Assembly (NCBI RefSeq): GCF_021028975.2
Contig: NC_059428.1
Span: forward strand, 8,122,001-8,186,000
Source of the DNA: Sphaerodactylus townsendi
Taxonomy: Eukaryota
Direction: 5' to 3'
DNA: 64,000 nucleotides
Below, in pieces: positions 9,102-64,000 of the stretch; position 1 is the stretch's first letter, and each line of letters starts with the position of its first letter. The notes below the pieces were generated by a model. It was given only the letters and a program-made list of their open reading frames with translations, did not search any database and was not told the origin of the DNA. Made by a program: the position numbers and the translations under genes.

Positions 9102-10572
9102 CAAGCTTGGAAGATGCCTGCCAGATTTAGAAAACCACCTGGAGAGAAGTTGAGGCATTGCCTTTCTTGACGCTTGTCTCAAGGCCAACAATCACGGGAC
9201 CTCAAACCTGCCCTGAGTAGAAGCCGTGCAAGTCTTTGCTGCTTTACTCTCTGAATCCTAAACTTCTGTCAGACCTCTTGGCAAGACTGCAGGCTGGAAT
9301 CATCAAACTGAGTGTTATATCTGGACCTACCACAGCCAATGCAATCACTGCAAATGTCCAGCTCACGCAGGGCCTGAGAAGAGGCAGAGGGGTCACTGCT
9401 TGGAGGCAAGAAGACCAGCCAATCCATTCAAAGGCCAGGCAAGTACTGGGCACCTGTTTGGCACCCCCCACCCCCCACTGTATTTCTGCCCTCCCCAATG
9501 ATCAGGAGGGCTTTGTGAAGCTTACTTGAAGCATTTGTACCATATGAGATCTGTCGAAATAATGATAGATCTAACACAGGAATATCACAATAACAAGCCT
9601 CTCTGTCCTCCTGTGGTAACAACAGCGACAGGAAGTATATTTGTGTGTGTATGGAGGGGAGGGAGGGAGGGAGAATGTCAGCACATGGTTCTCTTCTTCA
9701 GCAGCATGTGGTCCAGGGAACTGCTTTGCCTCTTTCCTTTGGAGGGGTGTTTTTTTTTGGGGGGGGAAGGGCTACAATACTGATACAACTGCAATTTATA
9801 TCAATATAACAGTAATTTAAAGGCTTTAACAAAGCCAGCAATCTGGAGATTATTGGGTGTGATGAGATCTGTGCCTTCAAGTTGATGAGTAAGTTGATGG
9901 GCAGAATTAAGAGAACAAAAAAAAAGCAGAGGCCCAGCAGAGTCCAGCAGACAGGCTGCACAGCAATGAGTGAGTGTCTCCTCATGTGTAAACAGAAAAA
10001 CACAAGGAGACTCCAAGTCCACTGCACAGTAAAGAGCCCCGAGGTAAGCATTCCATGCATAATAGGCCTTCTTCTCTCTCAAGAACATAAGATCATCAGA
10101 AGAGTCCTGCTGAGACTGGGTTTGATTCCCCACTCCTCCTACTGAGGCTTATCTGGTGAACCAGATTTATTTTCCCACTCCTGCATTCCTGCTGAGTGAC
10201 CTTGGGCTAGTCACAATTTGTTCAGAACTGTCCCTGGAGAACCAGGTTTGATTCCCCACTCCTCCACAAGAGTGGCGGACTCTTATCTGGTGAACTGGGT
10301 TTGTTTCCCTACTCCAGCGCATGCAGACCTTGGGCTAGTCCCAGTTCTCTCTGAACACTCTCAGTCCCAGCTGCCTTACAAGGTGTCTGTTGTGGGGAGG
10401 GGAAGGGAAGGATTTTGTAAGCCACCTTGAGTCTCCTGACAGGATATAAAGATGGAGTATAAATCTTCTTGTTCCTCTTCTTGTTTTGTTTGTCGTTGTT
10501 CTTCTTTTTCTTCGTACTCTCAAAGCTTTTCATGCTCCACTCTGAGTTTCCAGAGGTGCCTACCTGGCCATT

Positions 10573-11302
10573 AAGAACATAAGAACATAAGAACTAGCCA
10601 GCTGGATCAGACCAGAGTCCATCTAGTCCAGCTCTCTGCTACTCGCAGTGGCCCACCAGGTGCCTTTGGGAGCTCACGTGCAGGAGGTGAAAGCAAGGGC
10701 CTTCTGCTGCTGCTGCTGCTGCTCCCGAGCACCTGGTCTGCTAAGGCATTTGCAATCTGAGATCAAGGAGGATCAAGATTGGGAGCCATAGATCGACTTC
10801 TCCTCCATAAATCTGTCCAAGCCTTTTTTAAATCTTTCCAGGTTAGGGGCCATCACCACCTCCTGTGGCAGCATATTCCAAACACCAATCACACGTTGCG
10901 TGAAGAAGTGTTTCCTTTTATTAGTCCTGATTCTTCCCCCCAGCATTTTTCAATGGATCCCCCCTGGTTCTAGTATTGTGAGAAAGAGAGAAAAATTTAT
11001 CTCTGTCCACATTTTCTACCCCAGCATAATTGTATAGACTTCAATCATATCCCCCCTCAGCCGTCTTCTCTCCAAACGAAAAAGTCCCAAACGCTGCAGC
11101 CTCTCCTCATAAGGAAGGTGCTCCAGTCCCTCAATCATCCTCGTTGCCCTTCTCTGCCCTTTTTCTATCTCTTCAATATCCTTTTTGAGATGCGGTGACC
11201 AGAACTGGACACAGTACTCCAAGTGCGGTCGCACCACGGCTTCATATAAGGGCATGACAATCCTTGCAGTTTTATTATCAACTCCTTTCCTAATTATCCC
11301 CA
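10573..11302 (-). mobile_element. CR1 LINE 3' fragment
   Basis: [36 protein letters not shown]; (TTCTTATG)n tail; ends ~160 bp upstream of the OR52-like ATG. Confidence 0.92.
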
Positions 11303-18196: not shown

Positions 18197-19144
18197 TTAG
18201 GGGCTCTTGGGTGAGACTATTCTGAGGATCCTGCTGTAGATTTGATTTGTTTTGATGCTGTAAATGATGGGGTTCATCAAGGGAGGGAGGAGGATGTAGA
18301 TGTTGCCCATGATGACGTGGAGAAGGGGAGAGGCGTGCCGGCCAAAGCGGTGCACGATGGAGAGCCCGAGCACCGGAACGTAGAAGACCAGGACGGCACA
18401 GACGTGGGAGACGCAGGTGCCCAGGGCCTTGTAGTGGCCATCAGCCCCAGAGGTCATGCCCAGGACCGCCTTCAGGATCAGGCTGTAGGAGATGAGGATG
18501 AAGAGGAGATCGGAGCCCATGGTGAGGAAGATGAGGATGAGAGCATAAAGGCTGTTGAAACTTGTGTTGGCACATGCCAAGCGTATCAAGTCCTGATGTA
18601 GACAGTAGGAGTGAGAAAGGGTTGCGTCCCGACAGTAGGGGAACTGTAGAACGAAAGGCAGGAGAGGCAATAGGAGCACGGTGCTTCTCAGCAGAAGAAT
18701 CAGCCCAGATGTGGCCACTCTGCTGGAGGTCACCAGAAGTGCGTACCTCAGAGGGAAGCGAATGGCCAGGAAGCGGTCTATGGCCATGGCAAAGAGCACA
18801 GCAGACTCCATGAAGGAGAAGGAGTGGACGATGAACAGCTGAGAAATACACACATATACGCTGACCTTCCTCAGCTGGAACCAGAGGACTCCCATGACGG
18901 TGGGCACGGTGGTGAGGCAGAGCCCCAGGTCGGTGGTAGCCAGCATGGCCAGGAAGTAATACATGGGCTGGTGCAGACCAGGCTCAGTCCAGATGACATA
19001 CAGAATGGTGCAGTTGCCCAGGGTGGCAACCAGGTAAGCAGAAAAGATGGGGATGCCGATCCAGTGGTGAACCATCTCCAGCCCTGGGAAGCCACTTAGA
19101 CCAAGCACTGGTTTGCTGGCGTTGGCGGAGGTGAATGACGCCAT
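18197..19144 (-). CDS. Class I olfactory receptor, OR51-like (intact, 315 aa)
   Basis: LHQPMYYFL, MAIDRFLAIRFPLRY, HSYCLHQDLIRLAC (OR51-type), KALGTCVSHVCAV, PPLMNPIIYSIKT. Confidence 0.95.
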   Translation of the reverse strand: MASFTSANASKPVLGLSGFPGLEMVHHWIGIPIFSAYLVATLGNCTILYVIWTEPGLHQPMYYFLAMLATTDLGLCLTTVPTVMGVLWFQLRKVSVYVCISQLFIVHSFSFMESAVLFAMAIDRFLAIRFPLRYALLVTSSRVATSGLILLLRSTVLLLPLLPFVLQFPYCRDATLSHSYCLHQDLIRLACANTSFNSLYALILIFLTMGSDLLFILISYSLILKAVLGMTSGADGHYKALGTCVSHVCAVLVFYVPVLGLSIVHRFGRHASPLLHVIMGNIYILLPPLMNPIIYSIKTNQIYSRILRIVSPKSP

Positions 19145-32742: not shown

Positions 32743-33704
32743 TCAGACTCTCTTGAGCGAAACTAATCTCAGTATTTTGCTGTAGATTTGCTTAGTTTTG
32801 ATGCTGTAAATGATGGGGTTCATCAGGGGTGGGAGAAGAATGTAGAAGTTGCCCATGATGACGTGGAGAAGGGGAGGGGCATGTTGGCCAAACCGGTGCA
32901 CAATGGACAGCCCGAAAGTAACTGAACTAGAAGACCAGGGACGGGCGCAGACGCGGAGACACAGGTGCCCAGGGCCTTGTGGTAGCCTTCCTTCCCAGAG
33001 GTCATGCCCAGAACTGTCTTCAGAATCAGACTGTAGGAGATGAGGATGAAGAGGAGATCAGAGCCCAGAGTGAGAACAATGACAATGAGGCCGTAGAACG
33101 TGTTGAAGGCTGTGTTCGTGCACGCCAGTCGGATCACATCCTGGTGGAGACAGTAGGAGTGAGAAAGGGTCGCACCCGGACAATAAGGGAAGTGCAGAAG
33201 AAACAGCATGGGGGCCACGAGCAGCGTGGTGCTTCTCAGGAGGAGGACCAGGCCAATTCTGAGAACTCTGCTCGTGGTCAGGAGAACTGTGTACCTCAGA
33301 GGATAGCAGATGGCCAGGAAGCGGTCCAGCGCCATGGCAAAGAGCACGGCTGACTCCATGAAGGAGAAGGAGTGGACGATGAACAGCTGAGCGATGCAGG
33401 GGCCTTTGCTAATGTCCCTCAGCTGGAACCAGAGGACTCCCATGACGGTGGGCATGGTGGTGGGAGGGCAGAGCCCTAGGTCGTGGTGGTGGCCAAAGCA
33501 TGGCTGTGGAAGTAATACATACATGGGCTGGTGCAGACCGGGCTCAGTCCAGATGACGTACAGAATGGTGCAGTTGCCCAGGGTGGCAACCAGGTAGGAG
33601 GAAAAGATGAGGATGCCGATCCACTGGTGCATCTCTTCTAGGCCTGGAAAGCCGGGCAGGGTAAATAGCGTGGCGCTCAGATTGGCTGCAGCGAACGATG
33701 CCAT
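32743..33704 (-). pseudogene. OR51-like gene with frameshifts (pseudogene or assembly error); close paralog of 18197-19144
   Basis: ATG at 33704 (MASFAAANLS). Indel patches at ~33460-33520 (net in-frame) and ~32915-32955. The C-terminus (..PLMNPIIYSIKTKQIYSKILRLVSLKRV*) continues in another frame to TGA at 32743-32745. Acceptor-like tgtttctccctattggactcctcag at ~33781. Confidence 0.88.
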
Positions 33705-44791: not shown

Positions 44792-44830
44792 GTGCCTGGT
44801 TACCCTCCGGGGGAGAATCTCGTTCCCACC

Positions 44831-45808
44831 ATGGCAGCTGTCAATCACACAAGCTTCAGAATAGTCAAATGCATCCTGGTTGGAGTGCAAGGCATGGAGG
44901 ATGCTCACCGCTGGCTTTCCGTCCCCTTCTGCTCCATGTACATAGTTGCGCTCCTGGGAAACAGCCTCCTCCTCTTCGTCATCATCACGGAGCGCACCTT
45001 TCACCAGCCGATGTTCTTCTTCTTAGCCATGCTGGCCAGTACTGACCTCGTGCTGTCTACCACCACCATGCCCAAGACGCTCGGCATCTTCTGTCTGCTA
45101 ACGCTTGAGATCGCCTTTTGAGGCTCATGCGGCCACTAGATGTTCATTATACATTTCCTCGTTTCGGCTGAGTCGGGCCATCTTGCTAGCTTTTCATGGC
45201 TCTACAATACCGTACTGCATTATCTGCGGTGATTCATCACTGCATTACAGCAACTGCGTTGACTCCTTCTTCCTGGATCAGCAAAAGATGGCGTCACAAG
45301 GCAGTGCTGGCCTTTTGCCTGATGGCTTCGCTGACCTTCCTCCTGCTGAGGCTGCCCTTCTGTGGCCCCAACGTCATTTCCCACACCTTCTGCGAGCACA
45401 TGGGGATCGCCCGCCTGGCCTGCGCAGACATCACGCTCAACATATGGTACGGCCTGACGGTGGCTCTCTTGACCACGGGAGCAGATGCCCTTTTCATTGC
45501 CGTCTCATACTGGGCTTGATCTTCCTCATTTCTGGGTTCGTGCCCCGGCCCAAACAGGCTCGGCCAAAGCTCGGACCCAAGTGGCTCTCACCTTCATGGC
45601 CATATTGATGTTCTATGTCCCGGCCTTCTTCTCAATCTTTGCATACAGATTTGCTGTGAACAGCATCCCTCGCCCAGTTCATATCTTGCTGGCCAACCTC
45701 TTTGCCATTGTGCCCCCCATGCTAAACCCCATCGTCTATGGGGTGAGGACCAAGCAAATCCGGCAGCGCCTGGCTCTGGTGCTTTTTCCTCCTAGGAAAC
45801 ACCACTGA
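44831..45808 (+). pseudogene. OR52-like (OR52B/D-type) gene with frameshifts (pseudogene or assembly error)
   Basis: accATGG at 44831. OR motifs are spread over several frames: [46 protein letters not shown]...PPMLNPIVYGVRTKQIR. Indels cluster at ~45090-45300 and ~45510-45590. Confidence 0.88.
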
Positions 45809-47984: not shown

Positions 47985-48715
47985 AGGCAAACTCTATGCT
48001 GGGGATAATTAGGAAAGGAGTTGATAATAAAACTGCAAGGATTGTCATGCCCTTATACAGCACACGGGGTGGTGCACCTCACACTTGGAGTCCTGTGTTC
48101 AGTTCTGGTCGCCACATCTCAAAAAGGATATTGAAGAGATAGAAAAAGTGCAGAGAAGGGCAATGAGGATGATTGAGGGACTGGAGCACCATCCTTATGA
48201 GGAGAGGCTGCAGCGTTTGGGACTCTTTAGTTTGGAGAGGAGACGTCTGAGGGGGGATATGATTGAAGTCTATAAAATTATGCATGGGGTAGAAAATGTG
48301 GACAGAGAGAAATTGTTCTCTCTCACAATACTAGAACCAGGGGCACCCATTGAAAATGCTGGGGAAGAATTAGGACTAATAAAAGGTTGACTTCTTCACT
48401 TAACGTGATTGGTGTTTGGAATATGCTGCCACAGGAGGTGGTGGATGGCCACCAACCTGGATAGCTTTAAAAGGGGCTTGGACAGATTTTATGGAGGAGA
48501 AGTCGATCTATGGCTACCAATCTTAATCCTCCTTGATCTGAGGTTGCAAATGCCTTAGCAGATCAGGTGCTCAGGAGCAGCAGCCGCAGAAGGCCATTGC
48601 TTTCACCTCCTGCAGGTGAGCTCCCAAAGGCACCTGGTGGGCCACTGCGAGTAGCAGAGAGCTGGACTAGATGGACTCTGGTCTGATCCAGCTGGCTAGT
48701 TCTTATGTTCTTATG
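47985..48715 (+). mobile_element. CR1 LINE 3' fragment
   Basis: Same subfamily as 10573-11302; ORF2 C-terminus plus (TTCTTATG)n tail. Confidence 0.92.
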
Positions 48716-49422: not shown

Positions 49423-50928
49423 ATGTCCGACAGCGTCATGGTGGAAAGCCAGAAAATCTCCGGCGCGGACCTCAGGGCCACCACCGAGCCTCAAGTTGTC
49501 CGTGTCCTCGTAAAGGCCCCACGGCAGAAGGAAGAGTTTCTGGTCCACCAGGACATGCTTGTGGGAGAGTTCAAGGAACACATAGGCCGGCATTTCTCCT
49601 CTTCCCCTGACCGAGTCGTGCTGGTGTACGCCGGAAGGATCTTAAAAGACCACAAGACCCTGGGCCAGCACAGGATCCACCTCGATGATGACGCCACCAT
49701 CTTCGTGGTCCTCCGGTCCCACCGAGTGCCACAACCCCGACAAACCTCTGCCGTTCTGCCCCACCCGGCCTTGGGCCAGAAGCCCCACCCCAGTAGCGCT
49801 TTTCCCATGGCTGGCTCATGGGAGCTGATCACAGCCTGGGCCTCAACACGCCACCTGCTGTGGGAGTTCCAGACCCAGCTGATGTCCGATCCGGACCTGA
49901 TGCTCCGGCTCCTGGAAAACCCGTTCATCCAGAGCAAGCTCTCCCGCCCCGACCTGATGAAGGAGCTGGTCACCAACAACCCCCAGGTGCAGCAGGTGAT
50001 TCAGAAAGCGCCCGAGATCAGCCATGTCTTCAGCTCTCCAGAGGGCATGAAGCTGGTGGTAGAGCTGGCCAGGAACCCGGCGGTTGTGCGGGAAATCATC
50101 AAGCCTCCCCCTCAGGCCTCCGACTTCCCCAGCGGAGACAACAACGGCTCCCAGCCGGGACATTTCGTCGAGACGCCAGGCCTGCTGCACAAGGGCCTTC
50201 CGAAAAAGGGGTCGGCCAGCTCTGGCAGTGGCCACCCACCCACCCACCCCTGTGAAAAGCTGTCTGCTAAAGAGAGGTCGCTTCTGACCGGTGTCCGGCC
50301 TCCAAGGCCGGGTGCCCAGAACATCAGCTCTGGTGGCCACGATCAAAGTCACGAGGAAGGCGGTGGAGTGAAGGAAGAAGCTGGGCAGATGGTCTCCACA
50401 GCGGTGAAGAACCTGCTCCACCAAATCATACGGCACCTCCTGGAGAACGTTGCCAGCAGCCCTAGCAGGAACACCGCCGGTCAGGTGCTCAGCCATGCCC
50501 CAGAGCTGGTGGCCAAGATGATCCGGAAGAACGCCACGGTGCCCAGGAACTCCCGAGAGCAGGCCGCCACGCAGATCCCGGCCCTGCTGCAGCAGATGCA
50601 GAGCCCAGACATCTTCTGGGCCAACTGGAGTCCAAAGGAGATCCAGGGACTGCTAGAAATCCAGCAGCGGCTCCAGGCTCTCTCTGCAGACGAGCCAGCG
50701 AAAAGACCCCACCGAGACGAGCGGCCCGTGCGGAGGGCGCACTCCAACACGTCTCTCTGTGATATCGGACCCCCTGCCTCCAGGGTGGGGCACCAGGGCT
50801 TCTCTGCCCAGAGGATCTTGCAGGCTCTGGTGGGCGCAGATTGGGCAGCCGGTGCCAAACCCCTCAGCAACTTGCGGGGCTCTTCGGCCCAGCCCTCCTC
50901 CAAGCAACAGCGGACCTACAAGCTCTGA
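49423..50928 (+). CDS. Intronless ubiquilin-like protein 1 (UBL + STI1-like segments, no in-frame UBA)
   Basis: UBL: VRVLVKAPRQKEEF...VLVYAGRILKDHKTLGQH. STI1-like: LMSDPDLMLRLLENPFIQ..NNPQVQQVIQKAPEISHVFSSPEGMKLVVELARNPAV. C-terminal QIPALLQQMQSPD..IQGLLEIQQRLQAL matches the ubiquilin QLP.FLQQMQNP..QALLQIQQGLQTL segment. Stronger Kozak ATG at 49438. ATTAAA at 51031. Confidence 0.92.
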   Translation: MSDSVMVESQKISGADLRATTEPQVVRVLVKAPRQKEEFLVHQDMLVGEFKEHIGRHFSSSPDRVVLVYAGRILKDHKTLGQHRIHLDDDATIFVVLRSHRVPQPRQTSAVLPHPALGQKPHPSSAFPMAGSWELITAWASTRHLLWEFQTQLMSDPDLMLRLLENPFIQSKLSRPDLMKELVTNNPQVQQVIQKAPEISHVFSSPEGMKLVVELARNPAVVREIIKPPPQASDFPSGDNNGSQPGHFVETPGLLHKGLPKKGSASSGSGHPPTHPCEKLSAKERSLLTGVRPPRPGAQNISSGGHDQSHEEGGGVKEEAGQMVSTAVKNLLHQIIRHLLENVASSPSRNTAGQVLSHAPELVAKMIRKNATVPRNSREQAATQIPALLQQMQSPDIFWANWSPKEIQGLLEIQQRLQALSADEPAKRPHRDERPVRRAHSNTSLCDIGPPASRVGHQGFSAQRILQALVGADWAAGAKPLSNLRGSSAQPSSKQQRTYKL

Positions 50929-52775
50929 GTTGGAGAAGGCGGGAAGCGGAGACGGCGGCGGAAGGAGGCCTTTCCTGGCTCCCTGCGCTGCAGCCAGAGC
51001 TTCGTACGAGGATGAATTTCATGATTTCGGATTAAAAAGCTTTACGTATTTCAAAGGATCTCCTGTGTTGATTTCTTCTGCAGGTGAGGGAGGCGTTTGC
51101 CAACCGCTGCTTGGGAGATTCCCAGAGATTTGGGGGCAATACCAGGGGAGGGACTTCTCTTCCAAAGCTGCCATCCCATCTGGAGAACTCCTGCCCACCC
51201 AGCTTGAAGAGCAGCTAAGAGGAGCGTGGTGTAGTGGTTAAAGAGCAGGGGGATCAAGTCCGATTACTCCTCCACATGAGCGGCAGAGTTTCATCTGGTG
51301 AACTGGATTTGTTCCCCCCTCCTACACATGAAGCCTGCCGGGTAGCCTTGGGCCAATCACAGAACTCTCTCAGCCCCACCGACCTCACAAGGTGCCTGTT
51401 ATGGGGTGAGGAAGAAGAAGGAGTTTGTAAGCTGCCTTGAGTCTCCTTTCGGGAGAGAAAGGTGGGATATAAACCCAAAACTCATCTCCTTTTGAGATAG
51501 TAAATCTGAGGCAAACAGAAAGTTTCGTTTTGTAGGGAGAAGTCTGCTAAGGAGTCATCCCATTTTATCCAGAGGCAACATCAGAGGCCACCCAAGAAAG
51601 CCCAAGAAAGGAAAAATATCAGTCTCTTCCCTTTTCATCCCAGCTTTCTCCAAGGAGCGGCCAAGGCCTTCCAGTTACCTTTATGGAAGAGTGGAGATTT
51701 GGCCCCAAGCATCTCTCATTCTAGTTCCTGAGGGAGAAAGAATTCCAGGGAGAGCTTCCAGAGCTCATGGTGCCATCAGTCTCCTGCCAGCATGGCCAAT
51801 TGGCCATGCTGGCAGGGGCTGATGGGAATTGTACTCCATGAACATCTGGAGTGCCATAGGTTTGCCACCACTGTTCTAGTTCAATACCATAACCACTGCA
51901 TGATATTACCTTCCCACTGTTGCTCTTTGGCCATGGGGAGGAGATGCATGGGGAGGAGCTGTGGCCCAGTGGAAGAGCCTCTGGAAGTTGTGGGGGGGTG
52001 CTCTCTGCATGCTCCACTTTCCAAATCTCCAGGTATGTCCAAGACAGGAGCTGGAAACGTGGGTTAATATATTCAGTGGAGATACTTAGCGGCAGAGATG
52101 CGGACGCAGTCTCATGTGGAAAACGAAAGACTATAGCCAGAGATACTTTGAGTTGCTTTTGGCATAAAAATAGCTTGCTAGCTTAAAGGAAGGGTTACAT
52201 GGAATAAAACAACAAACGCTGTACTGTTCTGTTACACATTTACAGCATTGATTACAATCTAGGACTACATCTCGTTGTCTATCTGCTATCTCGCCTTGCG
52301 GCTCTAAACATGTGTGTTGAACAAAGACAACAGGTAACTTTATAACTTCAGATACATGTGCTTACTAACATGTAAGCAATGGTAGTCTGACTGACCAATG
52401 GCTAATCAATAGACCAGATCATAGAACAGCTTATTTACAGACAGACAGTTAACCCCTTAGTAACTGAATTGTGAGCGACACGTGCAAATACCAACACAGA
52501 AACCGTCAGTTTAGTCTTCCCAGGATGCCCAAAGACAAGAAGAGATAAAAGCAGGCTTGGTGGAGGAGTCAGCCCATGGGTCATCGGGGTCTGCTGCCAA
52601 CAATAAATCCCACTGAACAACAAAGTTAGTTTCAAAGGGTGCCCATGTTGGTCTGCCCTACAAGAGCTAGATTCCAGTTCAGTAGCACCTGAGAAACCAA
52701 CAAAAAGACCTGGGTAGAAGCTTTCAGGCGTGGAAGTCATTGGATGAAGGGCACTTTGGCTCTCCAAAGCTCATA

Positions 52776-53275
52776 TCGTGTTTCCCCAAAAATAAGGCAG
52801 GGTCTTATATTAATTTTTGCTCCAAAAGATGAGTTAGGGCTTATTTTCAGGGGATGTCTCATTTTTCCCCCCATGATTTTGCACCCCCCCCCCCCACGGG
52901 ACCAGATCACCTGAGCCAGGGAATCTGCAACTACCCTGTTTCCCCGAATATAAGACATCCCCTGAAAATGAGACGTGGTCGAGGTTTTGCTGAAGTGCGA
53001 AATATAAGGCATCCCCCGAAAGTAAGACGTAGCAAAGTTTTTGTTTGGAAGCATGCCCGACAAACAGAACACAGAAAAATAAGACATCCCCTGAAAATAA
53101 GACATAGCGCATCTTTGGGAGCAAAAATTAATATAAGACACTGTCTTATTTTTGGGGAAACACAGTAGGGCTTATTTTGGGAGTTGGGCTTATATTTCAA
53201 GCATCCTCAAAAAAAATCCCAAAAAATCATGCTAGGGCTTATTTTCGAGTTGGTCTTATTTTTGGGGAAACAGGG
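52776..53275. mobile_element. Tc1/mariner-type MITE with a nested related MITE (52934-53165)
   Basis: Outer TIRs cgtgtttccccaaaaataag / cttatttttggggaaacaggg, TA flanks; inner copy has its own TA flanks. Confidence 0.85.
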
Positions 53276-54331
53276 TACTTCAAAAACCGTGCTGATCATT
53301 AAATTGCTACTGGACTCAAATCTAGCTCTCCTAAACCCAAGACTTCCAGCAATTTCAACAGATATCTCAGCTGAATTATAAACAACACAGGGGTGAAAAA
53401 TGTCATGCTTAAGGTTCTTTTCTAACTTTCTAGGGAAAACTTTCTGTGTCCAGTGAAATGGGGCCTGAAGACGAATGAGTGGTCGCTCCGTTGCCTCCTT
53501 TTAAGTAGACTGGGCAGATCACTCTTGCTTCACTCCCTATGGTGTGAAATACAAATCTGGATCCACTTCCCAATCCTCCCCACCGATCTGGATTGGACAC
53601 GTGTTTTCTGAAAAGGTGCTCAATCATGCAGGTCCTAGGAAAACACATGATAAGGGGTCGAGGGAGCGCCAGAACCGGGATGAAACCGTATTCGGCAGTG
53701 TTGCTGTGGGGTTTCGTCCTGAAACCCGGGTATTTCGGGTGACTATCATGGGATTATTCGCCAGTGGGGATTCGACTGAGGGTGCAGGGTACCAATGTTG
53801 TAATGCATTTTTAAAAGGCCATTTATTGCCCCCTGCCCTCCTTATGGACCTCAAGTACAAATTAAATACATAAGACAAGGAACATAACATATGCAAAACC
53901 AACATTTTTAAAAACCACAGTTTAGGACCACTTTAATCAAAGGCAGCCCCTAAATCGAACCACCTTCAGCTGCCTCCTGATGATCGAAAGGGAGGGGCCA
54001 CGCACTCTTCTTGGAGGAGGCTCCTCTGTAATTGTGGGGCAGCCACCAAGAAGGCCCCTACATGTGTGCATCCAACGGGATTCTTTGCTCGATGGCACGG
54101 TCAGGAGGGCCTCTCTGGGTGACCTTAATTCCCAGGCAGGAGGTGTTTGTCCCAAGCCACGTAGCCACTGGGTGTCAGATGTTACGCTGGCCGTGGGTTC
54201 CAAAGCTGCCTGCTCCCCCTCTGCAGTGGCCAAAGAGAGTCCAAATGCAAAGTGATGAAGGCTGTCCCTACCACAGTGGAAATGGGGAAGGGGCTCTCCT
54301 TGCCACTTTCTGAGGTCTTTAATGCTGGCAG

Positions 54332-54351
54332 TGACCTCACCTGTGATGTCA
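54332..54351. promoter_or_regulatory. Two CRE-like octamers (TGACCTCA, TGATGTCA) upstream of ubiquilin-like 2
   Basis: About 165-180 bp upstream of ATG 54514; similar motifs at 49209-49216 and 63556-63563. Confidence 0.4.
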
Positions 54352-54513
54352 CAGTGACCCTCCCCTTGCTGCCACTCCTGAGCAGCAGCCTGGTTCAGGA
54401 GAAACGGAGGGCAGAAAGGAGGGCAGCGAGGGAGGGAGGGTGGAGCCTGGTTGGGAGGGGCTGCGATGCACCTTCGGCGGCTTCTTCCCCACTTCCTTCG
54501 GCCTCGAAGCATC

Positions 54514-55911
54514 ATGGACATTCTGGGCAAAGGTCAAGAAGGCTCGGTCCCCTGCCCGGTCATCGCCAGCAACCCCAGTTTCATCTGCGTCACGGCCAAG
54601 TCCCCCCAAACAACTGCCAAGTTTGTGCTCCCCGAGACCTGCACGATCCTGCAGTTCAAGGAAGAGATCGCCAAGCGCTTTGGCTGTGAGCCCAGCCAGC
54701 TGGTGCTGGTGTTCTTTGGGAGGCTCCTGAAGGACCAAGCCACCCTCTGGCAGTGCGGGATCAACGACGGGATGACCGTCCACATGGTGATCCGGGCCCA
54801 GCAGAGAGACCCGGAAGATCCGCCTCAGCTGCTGCCGTATGCCCCCAGGAACCCCGGATGTGCCCAGGCGCCCTCCCACAGCACCCTCCGTTCCGCCCCA
54901 TTCGGCCCGAGCGGCCAGGGCTCCTGGGGGCCTCCAGAGGCAACCCTGGCCCACTTGGAGTGGCCGCCGGTGCCCACGTCAGAGATGATCGTCCAGAAGG
55001 TGCGGCAGGTGATCCTGGCCAACCCGGAGATCCAGCAACTGGCCCAGCAGGTCCCGTCCATCAGCCACATTCTCAACAACGCCGACATCATGCGGGTCAT
55101 CTTGGACAAGATGCGGGAGATCATGGACCTGGCCCGGAGCCCTGAGATGATGCCGGACCTGAAGGGTGCGGACCAAGCCCTGGTCAGCCTCCAGAGCAAC
55201 ATCCCCGGCGGGGACAACCCCTTGAGGCAGCTGAATGGGGAGGTGCAGGAGCCCGGGCTGAACGTGGGGCAGGACGGGCCCAATCCTTACGCCACCTTGG
55301 GGAGAAGCCCTTGCCAGTACCCGGAGCAGGGCACCCTCAGGGGCCAGGTCCCCCGCCCGGATAGCCAGGACTGCGTGGCCCCCCAGCCTCTGGCCTCTCA
55401 GAGCACCACCAGCTTTTGGGGCGACGAGGGCGGCATCTCCAACCGCTGGGTGGGTGTCCCTCTGGGGCCCAGCCCCTCCGCGGCCAGCCTGACGCACTGC
55501 TCAGGAGCTGAGCCATTCGGAACGGGGGGTATCCGGAACCCAGACCCCGCCGAGATCCCCCTGATGATCGTGAACCTTTGCAACGCCTACACCAAGCGCG
55601 TGATGATCTCCCTCATGCAGAACGCGCTGCTGGCCTCCCAGAACGGGCAGGTGGGGCAGCAGGAGCAGATCAAGGACCAGGTGAGCAACCTCTCCCAGCA
55701 GATGCAGAGCCCAGAGATGACGGCGGCCATGTCCAACCCCACGGCCATCCAGGCCTGGGTGCAGATGGAGCAGGGACTGCAGACCCTCCTGGCCGAAGCC
55801 CCCGTGCTCGTCCCCTGGTTCATGCTGCGGCTGCGAGGCCTGGAGAACACGGCCGGAGGGGGCCAGGGGGCCGGGGCCCCTTCCTGCCAAGGCCCGGTCA
55901 TTGCTGAGTAG
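54514..55911 (+). CDS. Intronless ubiquilin-like protein 2 (UBL + STI1-like segments, no UBA)
   Basis: UBL: ICVTAKSP..QFKEEIAKRF..QLVLVFFGRLLKDQATL..GINDGMTVHMVIR. Also ILANPEIQQL..ISHILNNADIMR, IPGGDN, and QQMQSPEMTAAMSNPTAIQAWVQMEQGLQTLLAEAP. Strong Kozak atcATGG at 54514; in-frame upstream ATG at 54466. Confidence 0.93.
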   Translation: MDILGKGQEGSVPCPVIASNPSFICVTAKSPQTTAKFVLPETCTILQFKEEIAKRFGCEPSQLVLVFFGRLLKDQATLWQCGINDGMTVHMVIRAQQRDPEDPPQLLPYAPRNPGCAQAPSHSTLRSAPFGPSGQGSWGPPEATLAHLEWPPVPTSEMIVQKVRQVILANPEIQQLAQQVPSISHILNNADIMRVILDKMREIMDLARSPEMMPDLKGADQALVSLQSNIPGGDNPLRQLNGEVQEPGLNVGQDGPNPYATLGRSPCQYPEQGTLRGQVPRPDSQDCVAPQPLASQSTTSFWGDEGGISNRWVGVPLGPSPSAASLTHCSGAEPFGTGGIRNPDPAEIPLMIVNLCNAYTKRVMISLMQNALLASQNGQVGQQEQIKDQVSNLSQQMQSPEMTAAMSNPTAIQAWVQMEQGLQTLLAEAPVLVPWFMLRLRGLENTAGGGQGAGAPSCQGPVIAE

Positions 55912-56260
55912 GGGGGCCGGCCCTTCCACCTCCAGAGGGGCTGTGGGTCTTCTCACCTTCTCAGGCCCCAGAAACCAAACCTGGCCGAGGAACGGAGTCT
56001 CTGACGCGGACGGGAGAGCCTTCTGCAGCGGAACTGTTGGGAAAGAACGGAGGCCACCCCCCAGCGGCGGGGGTGAAGCCGAGCCTCGGCCATGGCGGCC
56101 GCAGGTGCCTGTGATGCGTGGAGTGGGACCCAGACACTCCTGTGACATAAAGAGAAACCACCACCCCCTCTCCCTTGCTTTGTCAACAGCTCTCATTCCT
56201 TTGGGGGAGGCGGGAGCAAGCGTGGGGGGTTGGGGGGCAGGGGTGGGGGCAAGCTGCCTG

Positions 56261-59864: not shown

Positions 59865-60613
59865 TGTGAAAAAGGCAAACTCTATGCTGGGGATCATTAG
59901 GAAAGGAGTTGATAATAAAACTGCAAAGATTGTCATGCCCTTATATAAAGCAGTGGTGCGACCGCACTTGGAGGACTGTGTCCAGTTCTGGTCGCCACAT
60001 CTCAAAAAGGATATTGAGGAGATAGACAAAGTGCAGAGAAGGGCAACAAGGATGACTGAAGGATTGGAGCACCTTCCTTATGAGGAGAGGCTGCAGCGTT
60101 TGGGACTCTTTAGTTTGGAGAGGAGACGTCTGAGGGGGGATATGATTGAAGTCTATAAAATTATGCATGGATGGTAGAAAATGTTGACAGGGAGAAATAC
60201 ATTGAAAATACTAGAACCAGGGGGCATCCATTGAAAATGCTGGGGGGAAGAATTAGGACTAATAAAAGGAAACACTTCTTCAGGCAACGTGTGATTGGTG
60301 TTTGGAATATGCTGCCACAGGGCGTGGTGATGGCCACTAACCTGGATAGCTTTAAAAGGGGCTTGGACAGATTTATGGAGGAGAAGTCGATTTATGGCTA
60401 CCAATCTTGATCCTCTTTGATCTGAGATTGCAAATGCCTTAACAGACCAGGTGATCAGGAGCAACAGCCGCAGAAGGCCATTGCGTTCACATCCTACATG
60501 TGAGCTCCCAAAGGCACCTGGTGGGCCACTGCGAGTAGCAGAGAGCTGGACTAGATGGACTTTGGTCTGATCCAGCTGGCTTGTTCTTATGTTCTTATGT
60601 TCTTATGTTCTTA
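59865..60613 (+). mobile_element. CR1 LINE 3' fragment
   Basis: [30 protein letters not shown]; (TTCTTATG)n tail. Confidence 0.92.
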
Positions 60614-63845: not shown

Positions 63846-64000
63846 ATGGCGGAGAAAAAGAAGCCCCCGAAACGGAAAGCTGCCAACCTCCACGTCATCA
63901 AAGTGACGGTCAAGACCCTGAAGCGCAAGGAGCAGTTTGACGTCTCCGAGGAGACCCTGGTGCAGGACTTCAAGAGGCAGCTCTCCGAGCGCTTCAACAC
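63846..64000 (+). CDS. Ubiquilin-like protein 3, 5' part only (runs off window)
   Basis: gccATGG at 63846 translates to MAEKKKPPKRKAANLHVIKVTVKTLKRKEQFDVSEETLVQDFKRQLSERFN, matching the ubiquilin UBL start (KVTVKTPKEKEEF..VQQFKEEISKRF). Absent from the ORF track because no stop lies in the window. Confidence 0.9.
   Translation, partial: MAEKKKPPKRKAANLHVIKVTVKTLKRKEQFDVSEETLVQDFKRQLSERFN

Follow-up and report, generated by a model that had tools for sequence, protein, structure and literature searches.

Two adjacent ubiquilin genes of the gecko Sphaerodactylus townsendi lack the C-terminal UBA domain, and none of the sauropsid orthologs that we counted has an intact one. The genes lie in a 64,000-nucleotide stretch of contig NC_059428.1, the window of this analysis (G000:C4:8122001-8186000 of a 1.81-Gb genome), as two single-exon open reading frames (ORFs) on the forward strand: gene 1 at 49423-50928 and gene 2 at 54466-55911. 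A third ubiquilin, gene 3, starts at the end of the window. The UBLs of genes 1 and 2 were closest to ubiquilin UBLs, internal STI1 regions were present, and the proteins nested among vertebrate ubiquilins in the tree; the two genes did not carry the C-terminal UBA with its MGF loop that marks a canonical shuttle. These two genes are real, conserved variants of a known ubiquilin family. While their anatomy and evolutionary history are well supported, their function is what we infer: we rate as evenly balanced the proposal that the two genes, with a UBA destroyed long ago, serve as chaperones or proteasome adaptors that work independently of ubiquitin, with spermatids as the probable site.

Genes 1 and 2 encode conserved ubiquilins without a UBA

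Pfam returned the ubiquitin (PF00240) and UBQLN1 (PF23195) families above cut-off for both proteins, and no UBA. Pfam absence alone was rejected as insufficient proof of UBA loss, as Pfam also missed the UBA of otter UBQLNL. Because divergent ubiquilin UBAs such as this one are missed, we built ubiquilin-specific UBA profiles. With these, neither protein showed a UBA, and a six-frame scan over 163 kb (the window and 99 kb downstream) turned up no UBA exon. A genome search for ubiquilin UBA exons returned just two, both canonical and on other contigs; the canonical ubiquilins of this genome are multi-exon, spliced and UBA-bearing (C7, C1). AlphaFold models of genes 1 and 2 lacked the C-terminal three-helix bundle, with tails of low confidence and, outside the UBL and STI1 regions, low confidence overall (whole-chain mean predicted local distance difference test score, pLDDT, of 48 and 54, respectively). 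The first-pass annotation of this DNA had described both genes as lacking a UBA while keeping UBL and STI1-like segments, and had suggested a six-frame UBA scan. The Pfam and profile scans, the models and the sequencing runs described below bore out the first point, and the two Pfam families together with STI1 alignments bore out the second.

DNA contigs were available from four runs (three samples of one study, of unrecorded type and possibly the assembly's own source). Both stop codons were covered by contigs of all four runs, with no difference at the stops among those listed. Long contigs X1 and X2 showed 17 differences from the window over gene 1 and 2-3 over gene 2, and the listed coding differences outside one error block were synonymous (7/7 among those listed). 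That block, within gene 1 (Table 1), differed from the window in all four runs, and the orthologs agreed with one another there and not with the window.

By its distribution among sauropsid entries, the UBA loss in genes 1 and 2 is old and conserved. At a mark of at least 40 bits with a broader profile, an intact UBA was present in 0/42 gene-1 and 0/40 gene-2 entries, and in 115/119 gene-3 and 19/19 mammalian UBQLNL entries. These counts are of database entries, not species, and include redundant entries and chimeric monitor-lizard models; they span lizards, snakes, turtles, alligator and ratites, with mustelids and marsupials for UBQLNL. Before counting, we excluded the proteins of the window itself (P0001, P0103) as well as canonical or UBQLNL matches (6/49 in the gene-1 set, 14/57 in the gene-2 set), counted P0049 with gene 2 and included P0258; gene-3 entries were drawn from the best 120 of 1104 matches. 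Scores below the mark came from three turtle gene-1 models (16-22 bits) and an emu gene-2 model (5.5 bits). The squamate ORFs of both genes were intact at about 42-83% identity, and the nearest named homologs were gecko proteins (80-83% identity), with gene 1 and 2 homologs labeled only 'ubiquilin-1-like' or 'ubiquilin-3-like'. The literature searched, with most subscription journals outside its coverage, held no description of UBA-less reptile ubiquilins.

Remnants of the lost domains

The UBA of gene 1 was likely destroyed by a frameshift, as an out-of-frame UBA fossil at the end of the ORF suggests (Table 1). The fossil was noticed by visual inspection, and only then were a profile of 36 columns and a window of 103 nt chosen to rank it. 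With these it ranked 1 of 325,786 six-frame positions in the 163 kb (rank 3 of 325,738 with the full 44 columns), and the four null windows scoring as high all contained the fossil site itself. Aligned without gaps to the UBA exon of this genome, it was identical at 53/103 nt, rank 1 of 162,897, and the gene 3 remnant came second with 50. Gapped local DNA alignment gave a weaker signal (matched by 30 and 39 of 987 null windows), a local hidden Markov model search for fossils detected the gene 3 remnant only (E 0.028) and missed that of gene 1, and nhmmer with two UBA exons of the same genome returned nothing below E=1.

The last 17 residues of the gene 1 ORF are fossil DNA read in the new frame. 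The resulting tail motif, RGSSAQP...YKL, was found in 26/27 squamate gene-1 entries, and none of these tails (0/27) could encode MGF in the old frame. In turtles, the gene-1 UBA remnant is degenerate and lies in the +1 frame, that of the gecko in the -1 frame, so one shared frameshift event is not established. Ahead of the tail is a basic motif, RRxxSxTSL, a putative kinase site. The gene 1 STI1-II had decayed in the alignment, and 20/27 gene-1 entries carried a TPW/APW/SPW loop in the UBL. A UBA-adjacent (UBAA)-like helix, defined and reported to self-associate in the available text of bioRxiv 2022.09.29.510132, was the only helix in the last 75 residues of the gene 1 model. A segment GFS...LQAL that looked UBA-like by eye was rejected as a UBA remnant: it aligned with the UBAA helix via the turtle orthologs.

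The UBA of gene 2 was likely destroyed by premature stops. Here the first-pass annotation, which saw no UBA remnant downstream, was wrong in detail: a faint trace of the linker and helix 1 lies at 55956-55998. This trace ranked 2 of 162,920 positions and gave little signal with the canonical profile (120 of 2938 null windows). In turtles and alligator, the gene 2 proteins share a stop point within UBA helix 1 and retain the UBAA helix; squamate gene 2 stops earlier, ahead of UBAA. A homodimer model of gene 2 residues 335-450 scored 0.63, with 0.01 for the best of three controls; runs shared at least 92% of contacts, and pLDDT was at least 64. On eukaryotes, the homodimer mark was reached by 17/29 solved pairs and 0/30 single chains, and by 1/7 pairs without an older solved relative, and the gene 2 pass may therefore reflect structures memorized by the predictor. 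The model supports possible self-association of gene 2 through its STI1-II helices. Foldseek of the gene 2 model gave UBL matches only, among the matches shown.

Gene 3 has a stop immediately ahead of the UBA, a frameshifted UBA remnant behind it and an acidic C-terminal stretch. The stop was without difference in 4/4 runs from two organisms. Among gene 3 coding differences, 22/26 were synonymous against 27% expected, and therefore gene 3 stayed constrained after its UBA loss. The loss is recent in this gecko lineage, with purifying selection continuing. All three cluster genes in this gecko thus lack a UBA; the first-pass annotation had the two UBA-less genes right and missed the third one, as well as the orthology and synteny. 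Gene 3 is probably the sauropsid gene that Marin named UBQLN6. Outside all three clades we observed a divergent UBA-bearing turtle ubiquilin (P0244, tortoise, 544 residues), which may represent a fourth cluster gene.

Table 1. Features of the ubiquilin genes (window positions; + is the forward strand)
Feature	Position	Strand	Remarks
Gene 1	49423..50928	+	Single-exon ubiquilin ORF, 501 residues, no UBA; ortholog alignment puts the conserved start at 49438
Gene 1 UBL	49507..49716	+	Hydrophobic patch retained, with VYAGR in place of IFAGK and FVVLR in place of HLVIK
Local assembly error	49803..49863	+	Compensated frameshift that mistranslates about 20 codons of gene 1; ORF end unaffected
Gene 1 STI1-I	49879..50103	+	Full length, 55% identical to canonical ubiquilin; 4 Met versus 14
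Gene 1 last STI1-II helices	50596..50688	+	QQMQ.P...LQAL segment noted in the first-pass annotation
Basic Ser/Thr motif RRxxSxTSL	50731..50760	+	Squamate-specific; 26/27 squamate entries
UBAA helix remnant	50800..50838	+	Aligns with UBAA via turtle orthologs
Out-of-frame UBA fossil	50861..50972	+	Frame -1 to the ORF; MGF positions read PAL; overlaps last codons and 3' flank
C-terminal tail RGSSAQP...YKL	50875..50928	+	Squamate-conserved; old UBA DNA in new frame
Gene 2	54466..55911	+	Single-exon ubiquilin ORF, 481 residues; conserved start 54514 gives 465; no UBAA, no UBA
Gene 2 UBL	54589..54798	+	VF[F/V/M]GR signature shared with UBQLNL
Gene 2 STI1-I	55000..55155	+	Squamate deletion of 15 residues and insertion of 7
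Gene 2 STI1-II region	55546..55854	+	Among the most conserved gene-2 blocks; homodimer interface predicted at residues 393-444
Gene 2 UBA linker and helix 1 remnant	55956..55998	+	Eroded, 45 nt behind the stop
Gene 3 start	63846..64000	+	Third ubiquilin, 500 residues; ends 1348 bases beyond the window (also L010:846-2470)

Origin of the cluster

In a 54-row tree, genes 1, 2 and 3 each formed their own sauropsid clade with support 100. No mammalian ortholog was placed with gene 1, and the gene 2 clade was sister to mammalian UBQLNL (Shimodaira-Hasegawa-like approximate likelihood ratio test, SH-aLRT, 95), a grouping recovered at 96.4/96 on 31 of the 54 rows after removal of the UBA columns. Gene 2 and UBQLNL also share a PW..L.GL segment and a UBL signature, VF[VMF]GR, which occurred in 29/33 squamate gene-2 entries (as VFFGR), 5/6 archelosaur entries (the other reads VCMGR) and 5/5 UBQLNL entries, and in 0/8 canonical and 0/4 UBQLN3 entries; two squamate VYFGR entries are chimeric or variant. 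These data make gene 2 a likely ortholog of mammalian UBQLNL, although the topology test described below was not decisive.

The surroundings match as well. The olfactory receptor genes tested in the window (3/3 matching PF13853) are presumably of the OR51/52 class. Further olfactory receptor genes separate gene 3 from beta-globin, which lies about 60 kb past it on the same strand; beta-globin exon 2 was located at L016:2722-2949 (G000:C4:8247722), the only globin match near the locus among the 6 returned. In human, UBQLN3 is reported about 236 kb upstream of HBE amid olfactory receptor genes (PMC1910613), and UBQLNL, UBQLN3 and UBQLN5 are described as tandem and testis-specific (Marin 2014, PMC4230246). 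Tandem ubiquilins amid olfactory receptor genes upstream of beta-globin are thus found both in this genome and at the published human position. Because synteny and the UBL signature coincide, we consider it distinctly probable, by our own estimate, that the testis ubiquilin cluster predates the mammal-reptile split. This would run against the published mammal-only origin: from trees of UBL and UBA, the available text of PMC4230246 places the cluster after the mammal-sauropsid split. Both domains are present in 619/643 of Marin's sequences, and we infer that UBA-less genes were left out of those trees, although the supplements could hold some. Counting against an early origin, the approximately unbiased (AU) test did not reject a mammal-only clade of UBQLNL and UBQLN3 (p=0.28). 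None of the five alternatives submitted to AU tests was rejected, including gene 1 with UBQLN3 and gene 3 with UBQLN3, and genes 1 and 2 sit on long branches in the ubiquilin trees.

Possible functions

As ubiquitin-independent adaptors, the gene 1 and 2 proteins would bind hydrophobic, untagged clients in the STI1 groove and dock through the UBL on ubiquitin receptors of the proteasome, where the client could be handed over or parked. Lacking a UBA, they would bind no polyubiquitin, would not recruit E6AP through that domain, as the ubiquilin UBA is reported to do (bioRxiv 2022.09.29.510132), and probably would not be long-lived. From orthology and synteny only, they would be expected to be expressed in testis, like UBQLNL, UBQLN3 and UBQLN5 of mammals. 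A shuttle or chaperone role of this kind, which the first-pass annotation had proposed, would fit published UBQLN1 deletion data: in human cells, UBQLN1 without its UBA or STI-3/4 still drives ubiquitin-independent degradation, which requires the UBL and STI-1/2 (PMC10237035, available text). UBQLN2, moreover, is reported to bind PEG10 without its UBA (bioRxiv 2025.03.28.646022). The available parts of PMC12410002, PMC10340487 and PMC7278180 hold nothing further on the function question.

Several features weigh against this role. With UBL contact residues assigned by alignment to ubiquitin, gene 2 has Phe at the Ala46 equivalent in place of the canonical Ala, and Tyr/Phe occupies the His68 equivalent of gene 1. 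The STI1-I of gene 2 is short by 15 residues in the region that the deletion study found necessary. That of gene 1 has far fewer methionines than a canonical one, in a groove said to be rich in this residue (PMC13083928); the STI1 regions have lost Met while keeping their hydrophobic fraction. In mice, Ubqlnl and Ubqln3 have been reported dispensable for spermatogenesis on the basis of knockouts (as cited in PMC8899140).

Genes 1 and 2 might instead encode partner subunits or modulators. Via STI1-II or UBAA, these would join UBQLN1/4 or a gene-3 protein that has a UBA, and would either use the partner's UBA in trans or lessen ubiquitin sensing in ubiquilin condensates. The highly conserved STI1-II of gene 2 is its predicted self-pairing surface, STI1-II is reported as essential for UBQLN2 condensates (PMC13083928), and gene 1 retains a UBAA-like helix of the self-associating kind (bioRxiv 2022.09.29.510132). 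However, the pairing model is of a homodimer only, the gene 1 STI1-II has decayed, and with the gene 3 UBA also lost in this gecko lineage the neighboring donor is gone; we regard pairing as unlikely. We are similarly doubtful that the UBL was re-purposed, making these proteins non-proteasomal scaffolds or holdases, with gene 1 under the control of the basic, phospho-type motif and the tail that it has newly gained. The constancy of the clade-specific UBL changes (VFFGR in 29/33, TPW/APW/SPW in 20/27) and the presence of the new gene 1 motifs in 26/27 squamate entries would suit such scaffolds, but the UBL retains its fold and most of its hydrophobic patch, and according to PMC10237035 human UBQLNL is a proteasome substrate itself, degraded mostly without being ubiquitinated.

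Two further explanations carry little weight. Redundant duplicates decaying under relaxed selection could account for the long branches, the several UBA losses and the fertility reported for mouse knockouts of cluster genes (as cited in PMC8899140), but such decay is quite improbable given ORFs retained in squamates, turtles and archosaurs and the synonymous excess in gene 3 after its UBA loss. It seems to us exceedingly improbable that a UBA is regained by splicing, read-through or ribosomal frameshifting: in three UniRef turtle models gene 1 does continue into a degenerate UBA (16-22 bits), and the gecko fossil frame is open across the gene 1 stop, yet the 163 kb held no UBA exon, the fossil lacks MGF, no squamate tail (0/27) could encode it in the old frame, and what is left of the UBA in turtles is out of frame as well as degenerate.

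The ubiquitin-independent adaptor reading would extend beyond this gecko. Tentatively, and with somewhat less than even confidence, we propose that an amniote-wide testis ubiquilin cluster by beta-globin lost the UBA at least three times in reptiles, giving rise to dedicated ubiquitin-independent proteasome adaptors, and that the DNA of the dead gene 1 UBA was recycled, in a new reading frame, as a conserved and functional tail. Natural UBA-less ubiquilins would then be at hand for the open question of how ubiquilins deliver untagged proteins to the proteasome, which the papers cited here probe with deletion constructs. The origin of the testis cluster, if the early date is true, moves back to the amniote ancestor, and gene 1 would show cleanly how the DNA of a lost domain can return, in another frame, as a conserved C-terminal motif.

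Other features of the locus

Two olfactory receptor genes of the window, at 32823-33704 (minus) and about 44800-45808 (plus), are frameshifted and are either pseudogenes or assembly errors; window positions 32750-33653 and 18204-19093 are 81% identical. Three repeat copies of about 90% identity lie at 10572-11302, 47985-48715 and 59873-60605, presumably the 3' end of a CR1-like long interspersed nuclear element. Past the window end, exons of a WD40 gene on the minus strand lie inside the olfactory receptor cluster at about 35-42 kb (L013-L014); we take this gene to resemble FBXW7. Near-identical ORF translations about 17 kb apart, at about 49-52 kb and 67-70 kb past the end (L013-L015), suggest a possible recent segmental or assembly duplication around an olfactory receptor gene. 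An ORF of 704 residues at L019:3821-5935 (minus) has a helical N-terminal part and NHL repeats (PF01436), and no Pfam RING match.

Comparison with known ubiquilins

Like canonical UBQLN1/2/4 and Dsk2, genes 1 and 2 have the order UBL, STI1-I, STI1-II, and gene 1 has a UBAA helix; unlike them, they lack a UBA and have altered UBL patches and Met-poor STI1 regions. With the mammalian cluster of UBQLNL, UBQLN3 and UBQLN5 they share a tandem array of divergent ubiquilins in an olfactory receptor setting upstream of beta-globin. Human UBQLNL is reportedly annotated as 475 residues without a UBA. In contrast to gene 2, all 19 mammalian UBQLNL entries examined (mustelids and marsupials) retain the UBA, and the available texts of PMC4230246 and PMC10237035 treat UBQLNL as UBA-bearing. 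UBQLN6 is likewise a divergent ubiquilin of reptiles and birds, and the UBA-bearing gene 3 clade is its likely match; genes 1 and 2 belong to separate, UBA-less clades, and gene 3 itself lost its UBA in this gecko lineage. The closest functional parallel is the engineered UBA-deleted UBQLN1 (Makaros 2023, PMC10237035), which has UBL and STI1 regions without a UBA and is itself reported competent for ubiquitin-independent degradation. That construct is artificial, with canonical UBL and STI1 regions, whereas genes 1 and 2 are natural and their domains have diverged.

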